Source: Fibrobacterales bacterium
GTDB taxonomy: Bacteria; Fibrobacterota; Fibrobacteria; Fibrobacterales; JAOPTW01
Assembly (NCBI GenBank): GCA_051532055.1
Contig: JAOPTX010000022.1
Location: 1 to 38,919, forward strand
Direction of reading: 5' to 3'
Length of the DNA stretch: 38,919 nt
In this document: one piece after another, positions 12,494 through 19,421 of the stretch
How positions within the stretch are numbered: position 1 is the first letter of the stretch
Layout of the letters: the number at the start of each line of letters is the position of its first letter
Program-made: the position numbers and the translations under genes
Notes under the pieces: model-generated
Told to the model about the DNA's origin: nothing
Databases searched by the model: none
The model's input: only the letters and a program-made list of their open reading frames with translations

Positions 12494-12652
12494 TTAATCT
12501 TCTATGTCAATTTTGATTTCCCACTCGGGCTCTTCTTCGATATCGATCACTGGAGACCAATCTTTTTTATGACAGGGTAACGATGCAGAGACACTATCGT
12601 CACTCATCTCTTTACTGCTATCTTCCTGTGCATTCTCTGACCATTCTGGCAT
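12494..12652 (-). CDS. Uncalled 52-aa acidic small protein, last gene of the putative effector operon
   Basis: Manual translation: MPEWSENAQEDSSKEMSDDSVSASLPCHKKDWSPVIDIEEEPEWEIKIDIED*. RBS CAGGAG lies 5 nt upstream, and the start is 21 nt after the previous stop on the same strand. Confidence 0.65.
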   Translation of the reverse strand: MPEWSENAQEDSSKEMSDDSVSASLPCHKKDWSPVIDIEEEPEWEIKIDIED

Positions 12653-12673
12653 CATAACTCCTGTTGTGTGTAC

Positions 12674-13012
12674 CTATTTGATTCGCTTGTAGGTAAGATA
12701 GATGCGACTATCCTCAGACATAGCTGAATCAAGAAGCGGTTCACAAATATATTGATACTTCGTTTTACTGAGAAATTTTGTATCAAGACCATAATAGAGA
12801 TCCACAAAAAGGGTAATATTCCCTTCTGTTGAAAACCCATTTCTTTGGGCAGTTCTCACGTAAGCATAGAGCTGCTCTTCAAGTTCTGTATCATCAAGAG
12901 AGGCAACAGCATCGGGAAATACTTTTCTTACATGCACAGCCAGTCGTACCAAAAATTTCTGTACCGTTGGTTGCATAATTTTATGCATTTGTTCATCACG
13001 AATTACAAACAT
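12674..13012 (-). CDS. Small helical protein of a type seen beside or fused to DUF4123 adaptors
   Basis: MFVIRDEQM...FLVRLAVHVRKVFPD...AQRNGFSTE...LYYGLD..F pattern, recalled from DUF4123-neighbouring ORFs. It starts 16 nt after the lipoprotein stop. Confidence 0.6.
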   Translation of the reverse strand: MFVIRDEQMHKIMQPTVQKFLVRLAVHVRKVFPDAVASLDDTELEEQLYAYVRTAQRNGFSTEGNITLFVDLYYGLDTKFLSKTKYQYICEPLLDSAMSEDSRIYLTYKRIK

Positions 13013-13028
13013 ACCGCTATCCCGTTAC

Positions 13029-14141
13029 TTATTTCCCTACCATGCCATCGGTAATGAGAGCAGCAAGTGTAGGTTCACTCATATATTCTCCTGCAAATGC
13101 ATAGAGAAAGTAGGTTTGATGTCGAGGAACCACTTGTTGAAAGTCAAGGAGGTTGATGTTAAAATACCCTTGAGCATTTCCATTTTCTACAGGCTGATAA
13201 CTCGGAACTCGTAACCGCACCGTCATGCCATCACCATAATCAGCCCCAACAAGTAATAGTGTTATGGGTACAATTGCTGTAGGTGTTCCTTCGCCCCAAT
13301 TCATATTGGGAATATCTTCGGGTTTTGACGGAAGATTAAATGCGCCACTCACCATCCACCTATCGCCTGGATTCAGTGTTTGCACTCGTTCTACTTGAAA
13401 TATCACGCCTGTTTCATTAGGAATAGCTGGTGAATTACCTCGTTTTTCAAAAGAGGGAAGAGCGCGCTCCGGATCAATGGGAGGAAATATCTCCGGAATA
13501 ATTTTTGCCCGTTCATCAGCAATAAACTGTTCAGCTGCAGGGTCAGTGAATTGCTTTTCAGATTTTTTCAACACAATCCGCTGACGATTTGATACACGAT
13601 CGCGCAAGATCACCGTCGCAATAAACTCATTAGGCATCCACTCAAAATTAAAACGCTCATGGAGGTCTATTTCGTATAACAGAGCCTTATAGCTTGATGG
13701 AGAAGGGTTTTTATTTTTAGGTTCATCATCCTCATCCTCATCTTCAGGGATAATAACACCCGATGCATACAGACGATTTTGATGCAGATCCATAAGAAGT
13801 AAATGACCATGTACATCCATTGGTAATTGGTCCATCTGCACAGCATTTCCTGCTCGTAATACTATAAGAGGCATCTCAGTTGTACTATCAATAATAACCT
13901 TGCTGGGGCTCCCAATAATGACCCCGTCAAATTTTTCACTCCTGAGTTGTTTGCTCACCAGCATCTGTTCTTTAGAAGGGTTTGAAAAATACTCTTCATC
14001 ACTCATACTGAATCTTAAATCGGTAGTTGAAGGCACTGTGCTCATTGGGTATTCCTTTTTCTGTTGTATATATTCTTTTGAGCTACAGCTGATCATAACA
14101 ATCAACAATGCGGCACTATAACTTTTAATATTTAATAGCAT
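13029..14141 (-). CDS. Putative lipoprotein, candidate immunity protein
   Basis: 370 aa with AALLIVMISC lipobox-like N-terminus. Its start overlaps the upstream metallopeptidase-like gene by 10 nt. No recognisable catalytic motif. Confidence 0.6.
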   Translation of the reverse strand: MLLNIKSYSAALLIVMISCSSKEYIQQKKEYPMSTVPSTTDLRFSMSDEEYFSNPSKEQMLVSKQLRSEKFDGVIIGSPSKVIIDSTTEMPLIVLRAGNAVQMDQLPMDVHGHLLLMDLHQNRLYASGVIIPEDEDEDDEPKNKNPSPSSYKALLYEIDLHERFNFEWMPNEFIATVILRDRVSNRQRIVLKKSEKQFTDPAAEQFIADERAKIIPEIFPPIDPERALPSFEKRGNSPAIPNETGVIFQVERVQTLNPGDRWMVSGAFNLPSKPEDIPNMNWGEGTPTAIVPITLLLVGADYGDGMTVRLRVPSYQPVENGNAQGYFNINLLDFQQVVPRHQTYFLYAFAGEYMSEPTLAALITDGMVGK

Positions 14142-16657
14142 TCTTCTGCTCGACCTAACCAGCTTGAATGCAAGTCTTCTAAGTTTCGAGCCCGTATATG
14201 GTCACGACAGGATGGGCAAAATGAAGGTCGATTATCAGCCGATCCACCACTACCAAACAATATACACGTCCCTCGTGTACTACCAAATTTTGGGAGTAAA
14301 ATATTTGCATTAGAAACCCCATGAGCACAGTGTGACCCAACATGAATAGGGCGATGACCGTCATCTACATCCGGTAATCTATTAGAATAGTAAGTCCCTC
14401 CCACATCATCAACAGTCATTGCAGTAAGCCCTGGTGCCGGTTCTGATTTATTAGTTGTAATAGTCATACCCATTGCATGAGCAAGTTCATGGCAGAATGT
14501 TGATGAGGCCGCCCCAGAAATATCTTTCTTGTGGCAATAGAGAATGCGTGAGCCACGAGCAGAGCCATTCGAAGCTCCATGAGTTTTAATTTTATATCCA
14601 ATATCTATGGGACAACTATTTGGACTTTCACCACCAACAAACTCACCAGGATAAGGTTTGCCATCGGGATCATCCCCTTCCTTTAGCGTTAACTTAAGGG
14701 TCTTATAGTCGGGAAATGTAAACCAATCTCTACTCATCTCACCACTTCGTGCATTCCCATCATCATCAAGCCCTGGATGAAAGGGTTTTAATGGAGTAAC
14801 CGCCTCTTCTAATGCACTCTTGACATTATTAAAGCGATCCTGTTTTCTCGTATTACCAGCCTCTGCATGTACAGAAATATTAAATCGATACCCATACTCT
14901 TTAGCTGTTTTTACTGCAGTAAAAATTTGTGTTACAAAATTGGTAATATCTGATTTTTGAGAGTCCGAAAGATCGGTTTCTCTGTGTCCTACAGTAGGAT
15001 TAGGAAAATCTAACGTAACGTCACCCACTTTACCAGTAGTATCCTTCAATATAACTTTTCCATTAACCGCATCTTCAGTGGTAGGCCCTGCTCCAAGGTC
15101 TTCCATCTCTGGCTTATAAACATTAGGGTTATCTATAATTGCATCCCAAGGTAAATCCGCAGAGTCAGGTAGTGAAAAAGGATACCCAGTATCAAATACC
15201 TTTTCAAATAGGTACCCACTAATACCAGTAAAATCAATCGTTTTCTCTGTGAGTGTTTCAAACTCTGCAGGAGTCTCTTTTTTATATTTAAATATTCTAT
15301 CACACAGCATAAAATGTAATACACGAGTGTCATCTGTAACGGTATACGGGTCGGGTGCATACCATTTTAATGGTCCACTTGGTGTATACCGATCGCGCCC
15401 CGCATCTTTAACATAGTCGCCACTCATAACAGCATCGCCCAAATCTGCTTTTGGTATACTCTTACTCTTCAAAAGATCAAACTCTACGAAGGTTGCGGCA
15501 AGACGTATTTTTGCTTTAGATTTTATATCATCATGAACATCTTTTGCCGCTTCTCCCGCTTTGTTTTGACCATCGTATAAGTCTGCCGCCATAAAGTCAG
15601 GATAGGTCAGTTCATAATAGAGCTTGCGCCAATTGGTAAACGTAACCTTGTCATCACTGCACGCATCAGTACTTCCTATGGAAATCTCACATTGGTCGCC
15701 CCCCGCATTACCCAGGCATACGTCAAATTCACCAACTCCCCCATCAAGCTTCAGATCAACTTTCGCAGTATATTCTAGACGTTCTGTTACTTCAGTTGGA
15801 TCACCATCGACACTTTTTCCGGCCAGTATCGCAGTTTTTGGTAATGTTCGGGCACTCTTTTTAGCAACCGTCCCATCATTACCCAAAAACTTTGTTTTTA
15901 CAAAAACAGTGATCCCTTCTTTTCCAATAGGCTCTGCAATGGTTACTCCATCTTCACTTCTATCGCCTTTTACCCCTACTTGTATCGTAATGGTATTTCC
16001 TTTAAAATCCTGACCATTACTATCGGTCTCTTGATTCACCCACTGCTTGGGAACTTTTCCACCATTAGTATTCAAGCTTTTGGGTGTGACAAATTGTGCT
16101 TCAAAATTGAGTTTCCCCGATAATTTCAAATCTCTGAGGGCTTCGCCGACCTCCTCGGTATTGGTAATTTCATAGGGGTGTTTCCCTTTTAAGGTAAAAG
16201 GGAGTTTTTTAGTCAAGGGAATTTCAGCAACCCCAACCTCACCCTCTTTAGCTGTTTTGATTGATGCACCTTGCTGTTCGCCACCTTGCATAAGTTTTAT
16301 AGGAAATTCAGAATAGGCCTCATCACCTCCCTCATGTACTACTTTTACCTTTGCAGCTTTCGGCCAAATGTATATTTCATCATCATTATCTACTCTCGTT
16401 CCCGATGCATCAACTTCCACATAATAGGTAAGTACTTGATGCTCTTTCTTTGGGTCAACTTCTGGTGCAGTAAATTTACAGGTTGCTGCCTTGCCGGTGC
16501 GTGCCGAAGGGTCGCTCGATATTTGCCCCGTCTCCCTATTAATCTCTACTCCATCAAGCAAAAAGACAAATGTTATCGCTGCATCTTCCGGCTCACCGCG
16601 TTGCAGTAACGCAACCATGCCAAATTCTTTATTTTCGAAAATATCTCGCTTACCCAT
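14132..16657 (-). CDS. 841-aa protein with C-terminal HExxH zinc-metallopeptidase-like domain, candidate secreted effector
   Basis: FCHELAHAMG motif (14477-14491) followed by GSHC, GTCILFG and FCPSC. Beta-rich N-terminal half, no signal peptide, divergent from a DUF4123 gene. Confidence 0.65.
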   Translation of the reverse strand: MGKRDIFENKEFGMVALLQRGEPEDAAITFVFLLDGVEINRETGQISSDPSARTGKAATCKFTAPEVDPKKEHQVLTYYVEVDASGTRVDNDDEIYIWPKAAKVKVVHEGGDEAYSEFPIKLMQGGEQQGASIKTAKEGEVGVAEIPLTKKLPFTLKGKHPYEITNTEEVGEALRDLKLSGKLNFEAQFVTPKSLNTNGGKVPKQWVNQETDSNGQDFKGNTITIQVGVKGDRSEDGVTIAEPIGKEGITVFVKTKFLGNDGTVAKKSARTLPKTAILAGKSVDGDPTEVTERLEYTAKVDLKLDGGVGEFDVCLGNAGGDQCEISIGSTDACSDDKVTFTNWRKLYYELTYPDFMAADLYDGQNKAGEAAKDVHDDIKSKAKIRLAATFVEFDLLKSKSIPKADLGDAVMSGDYVKDAGRDRYTPSGPLKWYAPDPYTVTDDTRVLHFMLCDRIFKYKKETPAEFETLTEKTIDFTGISGYLFEKVFDTGYPFSLPDSADLPWDAIIDNPNVYKPEMEDLGAGPTTEDAVNGKVILKDTTGKVGDVTLDFPNPTVGHRETDLSDSQKSDITNFVTQIFTAVKTAKEYGYRFNISVHAEAGNTRKQDRFNNVKSALEEAVTPLKPFHPGLDDDGNARSGEMSRDWFTFPDYKTLKLTLKEGDDPDGKPYPGEFVGGESPNSCPIDIGYKIKTHGASNGSARGSRILYCHKKDISGAASSTFCHELAHAMGMTITTNKSEPAPGLTAMTVDDVGGTYYSNRLPDVDDGHRPIHVGSHCAHGVSNANILLPKFGSTRGTCILFGSGGSADNRPSFCPSCRDHIRARNLEDLHSSWLGRAEECY

Positions 16658-16986
16658 TATATATAGACACCCCTACAGTTATCATATCAACACAGTATAT
16701 AAAATTAATATAAGATTAAATCGTCCTATTCCAAGGTTCAACTCACTATTCCAACTTGAAAAAGAAATCTTATAACAAAGTGGTGGTTCTTGCTTGAATT
16801 CTCATATAGATTTAAATAATTTCCTACTAGCCTACTACTCAATTCACTATATTACAGAGTAAAATATAATTATACAACAAAGAACGAAGCCAGAAATAGT
16901 TTAAATATCGTTTATTACAATTACCTTAATAGTTGCTAGTGTATTCTTTTTTTACATACTCACATACTGACCAGAGCGGTTGCCCT

Positions 16987-17565
16987 ATGACTACAAATGA
17001 GCCTACAAACCATCCCCCAATTGCTTCCCTTGAATCTTTACTGTGGCCTATTAGTGAAGACCGTTCAGATTACTGGGTCTATGCGGTTCTTGATGGCGCC
17101 CAAAACAGATCTATTGCATCAACGCTCTTTGATAGCTTTGCACGCTATGAATGCCTCTACGAAGGCGAGCTTACCAGTGAAATGCGCGCAGTCGCCCCCT
17201 ATCTCATTCGTCTTCGCCAAGGCACCCCCTATACTCAATGGCTCTTTGACAATGTTCCCGCCAATAACTGGGGAATCTTTATTAAAAGCACTGCAAACTT
17301 CAAAGAACTTCGCAGACACCTCCGCCGCTTTTTGCGGGTAAAATCCGAAGAAGGAAAAACACTCCTCTTTAGATGGTACGACCCTCGAGTTATGAGAGCC
17401 TACTTACCCACTTGTACCGAAGAAGAACTCAATTTTATTTTTGGACCTATGAGTCACATTATTACCGAAAGTGAAACCAACTATACTTTTCATGAATTTT
17501 CAATAGAGAGCACTGAACTGAGCTGTGAAACTGTTGAGACAGATACTCACGCCCTAGTCCAATAA
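16987..17565 (+). CDS. DUF4123 family T6SS effector chaperone/adaptor
   Basis: YAVLDGA, LYEG, APYLIRL, WGIFI, LRRHLRRFL, LLFRWYDPRVMRAYLPTC and IFGP are the DUF4123 pattern. ATG 16987 is preferred over TTG 16933. Confidence 0.92.
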   Translation: MTTNEPTNHPPIASLESLLWPISEDRSDYWVYAVLDGAQNRSIASTLFDSFARYECLYEGELTSEMRAVAPYLIRLRQGTPYTQWLFDNVPANNWGIFIKSTANFKELRRHLRRFLRVKSEEGKTLLFRWYDPRVMRAYLPTCTEEELNFIFGPMSHIITESETNYTFHEFSIESTELSCETVETDTHALVQ

Positions 17566-17576
17566 AAGGTGAAGCA

Positions 17577-18227
17577 ATGTCATTTGGTACATTTGATAAT
17601 GAAAAAGAGTGGTTTGGCTCCAACCAATCACCATTAGATAAATTTACGGGTGGTGGCGTTATGGCGCCAAGTCTTGACTCATCTCCACCAGCAGAAGCCC
17701 CATTAGAAGAGCTTGAAGACGAGCCCCCCACAGAGGAAATAGAAGAGAGTACAGAACCAAAAATTCAACTCTCAAATGCACAATTTATCAGACCCAACTC
17801 TGGGTATGAGATGGGTGAAAAATGCCGGATTACCGTGGATGTTGAAGTAATTGGTGAGAATCCAGACCCCAATGTTCATTTTGCCCTCTATGCCGATTAC
17901 AAAGACTCAAAAAATGAATTTTTATCGCGCACTGGAGCGAAGTATAGTAATGGAAAAGCTGAGACAAGCATTCATTTGGCCTATCCATCAGACTATCTAT
18001 CAGATTTAGATAGTCACACCGAAACAGACGCCTACTACTACTGTATTGCCTCTCATGACGAATGTGTTGAGGAAGCTCGTAGTCAAACTCTTGAACTCCC
18101 CGACACTGATGACAGTGCTGATGCCGCCGCTCAAGCCGCAGTACTCACTCAAGCAGCTGAAGATGGAACACCCTTTTGTGAAGAGTGTGAGAAACTTCGT
18201 AAACAAAAAGAAAAAGAGAACGCCTAG
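17577..18227 (+). CDS. Acidic hypothetical protein with C-terminal QAAVLTQAAEDGTPFCEEC tail
   Basis: RBS AAGGTG, starting 11 nt after the DUF4123 stop. Pro/Glu linker, beta-rich middle and a CxxC-containing tail. Confidence 0.75.
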   Translation: MSFGTFDNEKEWFGSNQSPLDKFTGGGVMAPSLDSSPPAEAPLEELEDEPPTEEIEESTEPKIQLSNAQFIRPNSGYEMGEKCRITVDVEVIGENPDPNVHFALYADYKDSKNEFLSRTGAKYSNGKAETSIHLAYPSDYLSDLDSHTETDAYYYCIASHDECVEEARSQTLELPDTDDSADAAAQAAVLTQAAEDGTPFCEECEKLRKQKEKENA

Positions 18228-18248: not shown

Positions 18249-19421
18249 CTACCAATACTGTTCGACATAATCGTACATATAGGTAAACGAAGGCCCTTCT
18301 CCATCTGCATATTCTGGAAAGGGAACATCTGATTTGAGCCACCCATCGCCCTCAGAATAATAGCGTTCAATGGCCCCCGTTTTGGTATTCCACATTACGA
18401 TATATGAATATTTTGAGCGCCCATTTTTGTTCAATCCAAAATGAGCCATTATATCACCCGCCCCTCCTGAGTTTTCCAAAAGATTTGTATGAGGAAGTGT
18501 AATGGTACTATTAACCCATACTTTTCCCGAATAGCGAAATTGGGAGCACACACCCGTTTTGGTATTCCATACCAGCACTGATTTTACAGGACCCTTAGAT
18601 AAAAGCCCTTTTGTTTTAGGTAACTCACTATACTGCATCATAATTTCGCCAACAGATCCAGTAGTCGTCACCATAGTTTGCTCTGGGAGAGTAGTATCTG
18701 ATTTATACCATTTTTTATCTTTAAAATAGTATCGCACCGATTGCCCCGTTTGTGTATTCCAAATAAGAGCAACATGATAGAGAGAGCCCGAGGGAGCTGT
18801 TACTATATGATAATCCATCATGACTTCTCCCGTTGCCCCTGCAGTCTGGAGAGGAGCCTCTGGAAGATTATATGGAGAACGAATCCAACGACCTTTTTTC
18901 TCATAAAACCGAGCAGATTCACCCGTTTTGGTATTCCAGAGGATCATTGCCTTAATAATTTTTCTTTTTGGTGAAAGTTTTTCATAGAAAGACGCCATTA
19001 TCGTCCCCGCTTCTTTGGGCAAATTATCAAATGACTCCTTTGGAAGTGTTCTTTTGGACTGTTGCCATTTTTTCTTATGATAAAAATATCGTTCGGTCTT
19101 TCCTGTTTTACTATTCCAGGCGTAGAGTGCTGTATACTTTTTACCCGACTTAGATTTCACCTGAATATGTTGAAAGAGTACTTCACCAATCTCTTGGCTT
19201 GATTCTACAATATTTTTAGGGGGTGTAACAGAAATCTCATTCCATTTCTTGTTCTTGTAGACAAACTCAGTAGAATTGCCTTTTCCACTATTCCACATCA
19301 ATACAGTGCGAATTTGTTTTTTAGACTCGATTGCTGTTGATGATGCATAATGAGGATTGTGTACTGGATTGTACCCATAGAGACTATGGATACAAAGGAT
19401 AAGAATACAGAGATATTTCAT
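18249..19421 (-). CDS. Secreted protein with six ~60-aa WNxx(T/K)G repeats (possible beta-propeller)
   Basis: Signal peptide MKYLCILILCIHSLYG. Repeats WNSGKG, WNSKTG, WNTKTG, WNTQTG, WNTKTG, WNTKTG, each followed by a Y/F-x-Y...W...P pattern. Confidence 0.8.
   Translation of the reverse strand: MKYLCILILCIHSLYGYNPVHNPHYASSTAIESKKQIRTVLMWNSGKGNSTEFVYKNKKWNEISVTPPKNIVESSQEIGEVLFQHIQVKSKSGKKYTALYAWNSKTGKTERYFYHKKKWQQSKRTLPKESFDNLPKEAGTIMASFYEKLSPKRKIIKAMILWNTKTGESARFYEKKGRWIRSPYNLPEAPLQTAGATGEVMMDYHIVTAPSGSLYHVALIWNTQTGQSVRYYFKDKKWYKSDTTLPEQTMVTTTGSVGEIMMQYSELPKTKGLLSKGPVKSVLVWNTKTGVCSQFRYSGKVWVNSTITLPHTNLLENSGGAGDIMAHFGLNKNGRSKYSYIVMWNTKTGAIERYYSEGDGWLKSDVPFPEYADGEGPSFTYMYDYVEQYW

Follow-up and report, generated by a model that had tools for sequence, protein, structure and literature searches.

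How T6SS (type VI secretion system) cargo is recognized when it lacks a signal sequence is an open question; every delivery domain so far, whether MIX, FIX, RIX, PIX or WHIX, has opened a new effector class. Burkinshaw reportedly described in 2018 a split adaptor of P. aeruginosa, PAAR4–TecT–co-TecT–TseT. The N-lobe of DUF4123 adaptors binds a short helix-turn-helix at VgrG's C-terminal end; TecT/co-TecT is a split form of such an adaptor (PMC11582642). Delivery domains listed elsewhere comprise MIX, FIX, RIX, PIX, WHIX, LysM, PG_binding_1 and others, and the available parts of the same two papers describe no free carrier of a DUF4123-binding tail (PMC12135965, PMC10673891). Here we analyse a 38,919-nucleotide stretch of DNA from a marine Fibrobacterales bacterium (the window; contig JAOPTX010000022.1, here C22), in which two divergent arms encode, on one side, a short DUF4123 protein and a 216-amino-acid (aa) protein with a PFCEEC-type tail and, on the other, an 841-aa candidate effector, a 370-aa lipoprotein and proteins of 112 and 53 aa. 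Fib_succ_major domains encoded in the window point to the phylum Fibrobacterota. We consider it probable, if well short of certain, that these six genes form an orphan T6SS effector–immunity cassette, in which the loading of an antibacterial effector would bypass the spike's own tail and rely on a carrier together with a split DUF4123 adaptor and a Cys-handle protein.

Among the six proteins only the DUF4123 protein has a Pfam match (PF13503, E = 1.2e-31; 109.9 bits against a cut-off of 25.8). It consists of the conserved N-lobe and ends shortly after it, as do its relatives, which likewise have no C-lobe; it is single-copy in the genome, and its profile found nothing significant in the PDB. 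Alignment A5 indicates that the protein probably starts at ATG 16987 and is 192 aa long. The 216-aa carrier is laid out as a short peptide, an acidic linker, a domain of about 130 aa (residues ~45–175) and a C-terminal tail near PFCEEC, and a Pfam scan found no PAAR motif in it. It bears the sole C-terminal PFCEEC of the genome, where a profile of the tail matches nothing else. The same tail ends VgrG or PAAR proteins encoded just upstream of DUF4123 in other genomes; in locus L062 the gene for a VgrG that ends in the same motif lies directly before a short DUF4123 gene, and because of this position we assign the tail to the VgrG-tail kind.

Scanning metagenomes for the tail motif gave at least 120 matches, and we examined 80 loci for which DNA was at hand. 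The tail profile matched 59 of them, and DUF4123 was present in 50 of these 59 versus 1 of the 21 others. The tail was borne by 9 VgrG proteins, 8 PAAR proteins, 30 other complete open reading frames (ORFs), a few of them short or mis-started, and 12 cut ORFs; with 30 complete non-spike bearers, free carriers are therefore common. Of 296 genomes of the phylum, 6 have DUF4123; at each of the five loci other than that of the window it adjoins a short protein that bears a related tail, and no VgrG. By their N-termini, 31 of 43 stand-alone carriers (L061–L143, L020–L023) fall into one cluster, a second kind of N-terminal domain of about 90 aa that is unnamed and unrelated to the one in the window, with no informative Pfam match in the five scanned; the window protein and its orthologue in a genome of the same genus (G001) form a cluster of their own. 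Elsewhere, a single protein encoded between DUF4123 and an effector carries four tandem PFCEEC-type tails (L058:6487-7323, minus strand), and L102 holds a half-DUF4123 fused to FHA.

The more novel part of the locus, overlooked by the earlier note on this DNA, is the N-terminal module of the carrier, which marks a polymorphic family across the phylum. Acidic by composition, the region is common to six orphan proteins on other contigs of the genome (C74, C3, C32, C37, C27 and C49; L184–L189), five of which were in the initial set and one of which, on C49, was found as a held-out match (E = 1e-43). Homologous regions are present in all six, with Pfam matches to OmpA and/or peptidoglycan-binding (PG-binding) domains in four, and their C-termini are variable. 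The genes downstream of them either are immunity-like, of the MORN-repeat or DUF3592 kind, or encode a second protein that is large or has HExxH, and the module proteins on C3 and C49 are encoded directly upstream of peptidases related to the 841-aa protein. With a module profile built from 27 rows, none from this genus, the carrier gives E = 4e-27 and 97 bits, versus at most 10.9 bits for 500 shuffles; the six paralogues are all matched as well. The same profile also matches P0005, P0112 and P0140, all of them members of the 841-aa family; some organisms thus fuse module and effector, which this genome would link through small proteins. These fusions are the strongest tie between the two arms.

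The module also tracks the T6SS across the phylum. It is present in 29 of 296 genomes, all of them among the 115 that carry TssC and none among the 181 that do not (Fisher p = 1e-13, or 8e-6 without the large family f4, both overstated because related genomes are not independent). Among its C-terminal partners are phage lysozyme and class 3 lipase, domains of the VanY-like, OmpA and PG-binding kinds, and short non-toxic extensions. No match in Pfam, NCBIfam or the PDB names the module. A word-indexed protein search found none in longer proteins, which is a weak negative, and jackhmmer started from the bare module core recovered no paralogues, which appear with a longer N-terminal query and with independent profiles. 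TssC itself is patchy in the phylum, occurring in 0 of 101 and 0 of 19 genomes of the two largest genera of family f4. On C32 (101445-103093), a gene pair that by eye resembles HipA and a helix-turn-helix antitoxin directly follows a module-effector and immunity pair.

One could read the module instead as a generic beta-rich spacer, with the carrier binding the spike, for example the PAAR extension, by another surface, or with the short N-terminal peptide alone as the signal. That peptide differs between clades, one protein places an Hcp domain ahead of the module and OmpA and PG-binding domains after it (L199:1-2430, minus strand), so that the module is not always first, and the ESM Atlas returned for the 216-aa protein only weak, CARDB-like leads at 0.76–0.78. 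Yet the module is N-terminal in nearly all loci inspected, joined there to unrelated toxin-like C-termini, and its complete absence from TssC-negative genomes of the phylum also speaks against a mere spacer, a role that we judge very improbable. As fold labels, 'Ig-like' and 'helical' are readings of the sequence pattern only, and 'TTR-like' was given by eye.

No vgrG, hcp, PAAR or tss family is matched by Pfam among the 28 window proteins scanned, as the earlier note had reported, and its proposal that the locus is orphan cargo of a contractile system whose genes lie elsewhere is borne out by a T6SS on contig C1 of the same genome (5.17 Mb, 94% complete). At about 37–63 kb this contig carries tssA, B, C, E, F, G, H, K, L and M, hcp, vgrG and PAAR, arranged as tssK, L, M, A, B, C, hcp, E, F, G, a ClpV-type ATPase, vgrG and DUF2169, with a divergent DUF2169–PAAR arm; tssH was assigned as a Clp-type AAA ATPase from its domains and position. 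We found one VgrG gene and one PAAR gene in the genome, both without a match to the tail, and no Tox-PAAR-like (DUF4150) gene. The cluster as a whole (C1:32673-63120; L006, L007, L011) holds two DUF2169 genes, and its divergent arm consists of DUF2169, a PAAR protein extended by CarboxypepD_reg-like regions, a weak-LysM protein and a 1179-aa protein that has no annotation. On C42, an orphan 389-aa protein with a lipoprotein-like N-terminus contains two tandem Hcp domains (163869-165038; L009:8870-10039, minus strand), an exported Hcp fold being unusual.

The earlier note had left room for a contractile system other than a T6SS. In favour of cargo of an extracellular contractile injection system (eCIS) or of some other contractile system, 15 of 33 effector-family genomes from other searches have an eCIS-type tube gene, including all 4 of the 33 that are without TssC. 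However, TssC is present in the other 29, the tail sits on T6SS VgrG proteins, and a search of the 94%-complete genome turned up neither the eCIS tube (PF06841) nor a phage-type sheath (PF17482); the tube search's control matched nowhere, but the same family did match in 17 of 38 genomes in another survey. We rejected an eCIS as the machine, and give cargo status for any contractile system but a T6SS almost no weight.

What joins the adaptor to its cargo would be a small protein of recurrent position. In many loci the order is tail donor, DUF4123, 112-aa family and cargo, and the 112-aa family lies, in operons with vgrG or PAAR, between a short DUF4123 gene and the cargo. The family has no NCBIfam match and nothing significant in a PDB profile search, and the ESM Atlas places the 112-aa protein with clusters at 0.94–0.95, all unnamed. 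No longer fusion of the family was found by word-indexed protein search, again a weak negative, and tblastn against plasmids gave no match with the 112-aa protein or with the tail. Where the gene after the 112-aa family could be called (30 of 41 family genes), it encodes PC, CP or CE within its 60 N-terminal residues 24 times, and 13 of 17 times in metagenome loci outside profile training, over a background of 6–15% (147 of 2,486 long ORFs in the genome; 85 of 575 in the loci). In the subfamily of the 841-aa protein this Cys/Pro motif is carried by a separate acidic gene of 53–140 aa, and we infer that it is a handle gripped by the co-adaptor. The 53-aa protein of the window is 37% identical to its counterpart in a Polyangium locus (L037), to whose 112-aa and 53-aa proteins those of the window are closest among the rows aligned.

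Other arrangements of the 112-aa family were also seen. Behind a paralogue in the same genome (C40:44238-47469; L010) come a gene for a 172-aa protein that bears the Cys/Pro motif, one resembling EEP-family nucleases and one for a 441-aa protein of no known kind, with no DUF4123; this cassette may use the DUF4123 protein and carrier of the window in trans. Tandem duplications of the 112-aa domain (~250–300 aa) follow short DUF4123 genes in L228–L233 and L243–L245, and reading frames of similar length occur in three genomes of the phylum.

The 841-aa protein, which has no family match in Pfam or NCBIfam, is by its sequence a metzincin-like peptidase of an unnamed family, for which a homologue search returned 339 representatives at E ≤ 1e-3. 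A putative zinc peptidase motif at its C-terminus comprises H723-E724-H727, G774-H776-C777, C798, C814 and C817. Among 127 listed homologues longer than 600 aa, 118 have the full HExxH...GxHC...C...CxxC motif and 119 have HExxH, which is invariant in all 34 rows of alignment A9, rows that were chosen by the motif. Profile matches in the PDB are all weak and all to metzincins (best E = 5.6e-4), with archaemetzincin chains matching weakly over the Cys region (E = 0.04–0.11). The archaemetzincin consensus HEXXHXXGXXHCX4CXMX17CXXC and the 841-aa family share the order HExxHxxG, HC, CxM and CxxC, whereas the spacers have medians of 46, 20 and 13 residues in the latter versus 2, 4 and 17 (PMC3427221). 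Unlike archaemetzincins, the family lacks a His three residues after the Gly, and its domain lies at the C-terminus of a protein of ~840 aa encoded beside an immunity-like gene. In the window protein the third-ligand position of HExxHxxGxx(H/D) fails, residue 733 being Ile and the conserved HC lying ~46 residues after the Gly, and, this position and the Cys spacing both being unlike theirs, we do not class the protein with the archaemetzincins. Tox-MPTase1-5, described as Rhs-associated (PMC3482391), were set aside for want of any Pfam match to those families, and an OmpA-like insert suspected by eye within the 841-aa protein found no Pfam support. A word-indexed protein search with the 841-aa protein matched only the query itself, a weak negative, and a single-sequence query found no match in 60 close relatives. 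The family occurs in 24 of 251 genomes of the phylum, all 24 of them TssC-positive.

The partner of this peptidase is the 370-aa protein. A GTDB scan with the 841-aa family yielded 37 effector loci, many on short contigs (the tallies include the unpublished genome G253, on which no claim depends by itself), and a homologue of the 370-aa protein is present in 36 of them, the sole miss lying at a contig end. Counted by gene, a member of the partner family lies at most 600 nucleotides behind the effector in 44 of 54 effector ORFs, and tandem effector–partner pairs and extra partner copies occur. Such pairing, tandem pairs and extra copies are typical of immunity genes. The 370-aa protein itself has a weak lipobox at Cys19.

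These facts bear on whether the peptidase is an antibacterial toxin at all. A relay of the kind proposed here could also carry an anti-eukaryotic or a non-toxic secreted peptidase, with the lipoprotein as its partner and no antidote. Archaemetzincins, which have a similar motif, are inactive on the substrates tested (PMC3427221), the related peptidases on C3 and C49 have no adjacent immunity-like gene, and the partner family often has no recognizable signal: by a crude test, 61 of its N-termini divide into 6 with a lipobox, 20 hydrophobic and 35 neither. The near-constant partner gene, with its tandem pairs and extra copies, argues instead for effector and immunity protein, as does the fusion of some 841-aa family members to OmpA and PG-binding domains, and we regard a peptidase that is no antibacterial toxin as quite unlikely.

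The two arms co-occur in other genomes, a recurrence on which the earlier note had let its reading hang. In the Polyangium locus L037 all six families are present and co-oriented; L029 and L050 have carrier, DUF4123, 112-aa gene, handle and effector in that order, also co-oriented; in L135 the two arms are convergent. Two further loci (L093, L130) are operons of vgrG (with the tail), DUF4123, 112-aa gene and effector, the effectors being more distant members that match the 841-aa profile at E = 8e-21 and 1e-26. The six-gene set is thus beyond chance, because the same families recur together in unrelated phyla. The divergent layout, which the earlier note took for a feature of the system, is incidental given the co-oriented families of L037, and as a conserved feature we rejected it in view of L029, L050 and L135 as well.

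Counts in the 37 effector loci, some of whose sequences went into building the 112-aa, 53-aa and tail profiles, are 16 for the 112-aa family, 14 for the 53-aa family, 6 for DUF4123, 5 for the tail and 0 for vgrG. DUF4123 was thus unseen in 31 and the 112-aa gene in 21, many of them on short contigs; the family therefore often loads otherwise or in trans. In G001, DUF4123 and a carrier (50% identity) serve other cargo: co-linear behind them come a 112-aa gene and a 1042-aa cargo that both differ from those of the window, and the 841-aa family has no match in that genome. Such a pattern agrees with a hub that stays constant while the cargo arm is exchanged. The divergent layout probably stems from cassette exchange, in which a pair of DUF4123 and carrier that is conserved in the genus was joined to a swappable arm of co-adaptor and cargo.

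The same pattern leaves room for arms that are both T6SS-related and yet not partners. DUF4123 and carrier would then be left from an earlier cargo or serve another cassette, such as the 112-aa paralogue and EEP nuclease on C40, and the peptidase cassette would have been inserted beside them and be loaded by another route. Such independence would account for an orientation that is not conserved, for the many effector loci with no DUF4123 nearby, for the other cargo of the same pair in G001, for a window 112-aa protein nearer to that of Polyangium (31% identity) than to that of G001 (20%), and for a second 112-aa family gene in the genome. It fits poorly with the single operon of L037, with canonical operons of vgrG, DUF4123, 112-aa gene and effector, with a genome that has one DUF4123 and one tail only, and with the fusion of module and 841-aa family elsewhere. 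On balance we hold non-partner arms to be unlikely.

Under the reading that we prefer, an orphan cassette loaded through the carrier, we propose the following relay. The 216-aa carrier would enter the T6SS encoded on C1 by way of its N-terminal module, which also heads the other orphan polymorphic effectors of the genome. Homology to VgrG and PAAR tails suggests that its C-terminal tail binds the short DUF4123. The 112-aa protein, judging by gene position, would be a separate cargo-binding lobe that grips an N-terminal Cys/Pro motif; in what is the most speculative step, this motif would lie on the 53-aa protein, which would in turn attach to the 841-aa effector. The effector may be a zinc peptidase that acts against rival bacteria, probably in the cell envelope, and would be blocked by the lipoprotein. 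Several of the observations given above weigh against this scheme, namely the eCIS tube genes of all TssC-negative effector-family genomes, the effector loci in which DUF4123 or the 112-aa gene is unseen, the other cargo of G001, the scarcity of lipoboxes in the partner family and the peptidases on C3 and C49 with no immunity-like neighbour. To these are added a TssJ (PF12790) not found in the 94%-complete genome by a search whose control matched in E. coli, no fusion of DUF4123 to the 112-aa family among the homologues searched, and a putative Met-turn that has Met in 87 of 106 homologues and Leu in the window protein.

More broadly, and tentatively, we suggest, at a little less than an even chance of being right, that the N-terminal module is a T6SS delivery domain not described before, the defining feature of a polymorphic class of effectors across Fibrobacterota; that, with a VgrG-type tail joined on, it forms a hub detached from the spike, which lets one DUF4123 load exchangeable cassettes of co-adaptor and cargo in trans through an N-terminal Cys/Pro handle; and that the second unnamed N-terminal domain does likewise in other phyla. 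If the module is a delivery domain and the hub is free, DUF4123 loading would be widely independent of the spike's own tail.

The six ORFs named by the earlier note (DUF4123, PFCEEC-tailed protein, HExxH protein of 841 aa, overlapping lipoprotein, 112-aa protein and small ORF) are real and lie where it had put them; the last, counted there as 52 aa, is refined to 53 (Table 1). The sigma-70-like matches in the divergent intergenic region (-16685 and +16843) belong to a promoter scan that gave 15 sites in the scanned region versus 15.3 expected by chance; at chance frequency they are no evidence of function. The GC content of the locus is the same as that of its flanks and flat across the six genes. 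DNA contigs of run X1, the possible source of the assembly, tile the divergent junction and offer no alternative joint there. Contigs of RNA run X2 cover 12646-14107, 14192-16684, 17039-17256 and 17356-17878, and partly the flanks too; they carry neither strand nor level and derive from the same sample as X1, and we did not use them as evidence of expression. Outside the cargo module, and convergent with the carrier gene, the window encodes a 390-aa protein (18249-19421, minus strand) with a signal-like N-terminus and repeated WNxKTG units, which has no match in Pfam or NCBIfam and no paralogue in the genome.

Table 1. Features of the divergent DUF4123 locus, with positions in the window
Feature	Position	Strand	Basis or remark
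Effector candidate, 841 aa	14132-16657	minus	ORF list; no signal peptide seen
Candidate immunity lipoprotein, 370 aa	13029-14141	minus	Unnamed family; 10-bp overlap with the 841-aa gene
Candidate co-adaptor, 112 aa	12674-13012	minus	Position between short DUF4123 and cargo in vgrG/PAAR operons
Candidate handle, acidic, with Pro-Cys motif, 53 aa (52 from second Met)	12494-12655	minus	ORF list
Short DUF4123 (Tap/TEC) adaptor	16987-17565 (called ORF from TTG 16933)	plus	Pfam PF13503
Free-standing carrier, 216 aa	17577-18227	plus	N-terminal module and VgrG/PAAR-type tail; PFCEEC 11 residues before the C-terminus
Divergent intergenic region, AT-rich	16658-16986		One sigma-70-like match per strand

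What the locus adds is a candidate new domain and a proposed loading route that separates the DUF4123-binding tail from VgrG and PAAR, together with a candidate cargo handle in the Cys/Pro motif that follows the co-adaptor, and a family, not yet named, of candidate peptidase effectors and immunity proteins. It does so in a phylum where a T6SS marker, TssC, is present in 115 of 296 genomes and for which our search found almost no T6SS literature. A literature search for PFCEEC found no paper, although related loci may be listed in the supplementary DUF4123 neighbourhood tables of PMC11582642 or in dbVgrG, and one combining delivery-domain terms found none either, most subscription papers lying outside its reach. 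The earlier note's suggestion of a new system goes too far, as both ingredients are on record: DUF4123 adaptors in split form, and secreted adaptors that take the place of VgrG or PAAR.

With the Tap/TEC adaptors (P. aeruginosa Tap6 and Tap14; PMC11582642) the locus shares a DUF4123 N-lobe, a short tail of the VgrG type and nearby candidate effector and immunity genes. It differs in having no C-lobe, where those adaptors are bilobed with an effector-binding C-terminal lobe, and in having no vgrG upstream, where all five neighbourhood types described from nine proteobacterial genera do (PMC11582642). Its tail is on a non-spike protein, the VgrG and PAAR proteins of the genome being without a match to it, and the cargo family of the 841-aa protein is not among that paper's five. 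The TecT/co-TecT arrangement, too, combines an N-lobe-only DUF4123 with a separate small protein in the cargo-binding position; the likeness of the 112-aa protein to co-TecT is one of gene position. Here, by contrast, the tail donor is not a PAAR protein, the only PAAR gene lying on C1, there is an extra gene for a 53-aa candidate handle, and the cargo is a putative peptidase rather than a DNase.

The carrier itself can be compared with RIX of Vibrionaceae (PMC10435454) and, by analogy, with MIX, FIX, PIX and WHIX. Both are encoded by orphan genes, in both an N-terminal region is common to polymorphic toxins and non-toxic adaptors, and in both the N-terminal domain takes the place of VgrG or PAAR in otherwise homologous loading modules (PMC10435454). 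By its description RIX is a short, Arg-rich, two-helix domain, whereas the module of Fibrobacterota is acidic and spans ~130 aa plus a peptide, and, its length and acidic make-up being a poor fit to that description, we do not file the module under RIX. The platforms also differ, a candidate DUF4123-binding tail here versus a TTR domain that binds the effector directly (PMC10435454), and the term DUF4123 occurs 0 times in the main text of that paper. We conclude that the locus is a T6SS cargo module and not a new machine, one that works like TecT/co-TecT joined to a RIX-style secreted adaptor and that, by the features tested, is a member of neither.

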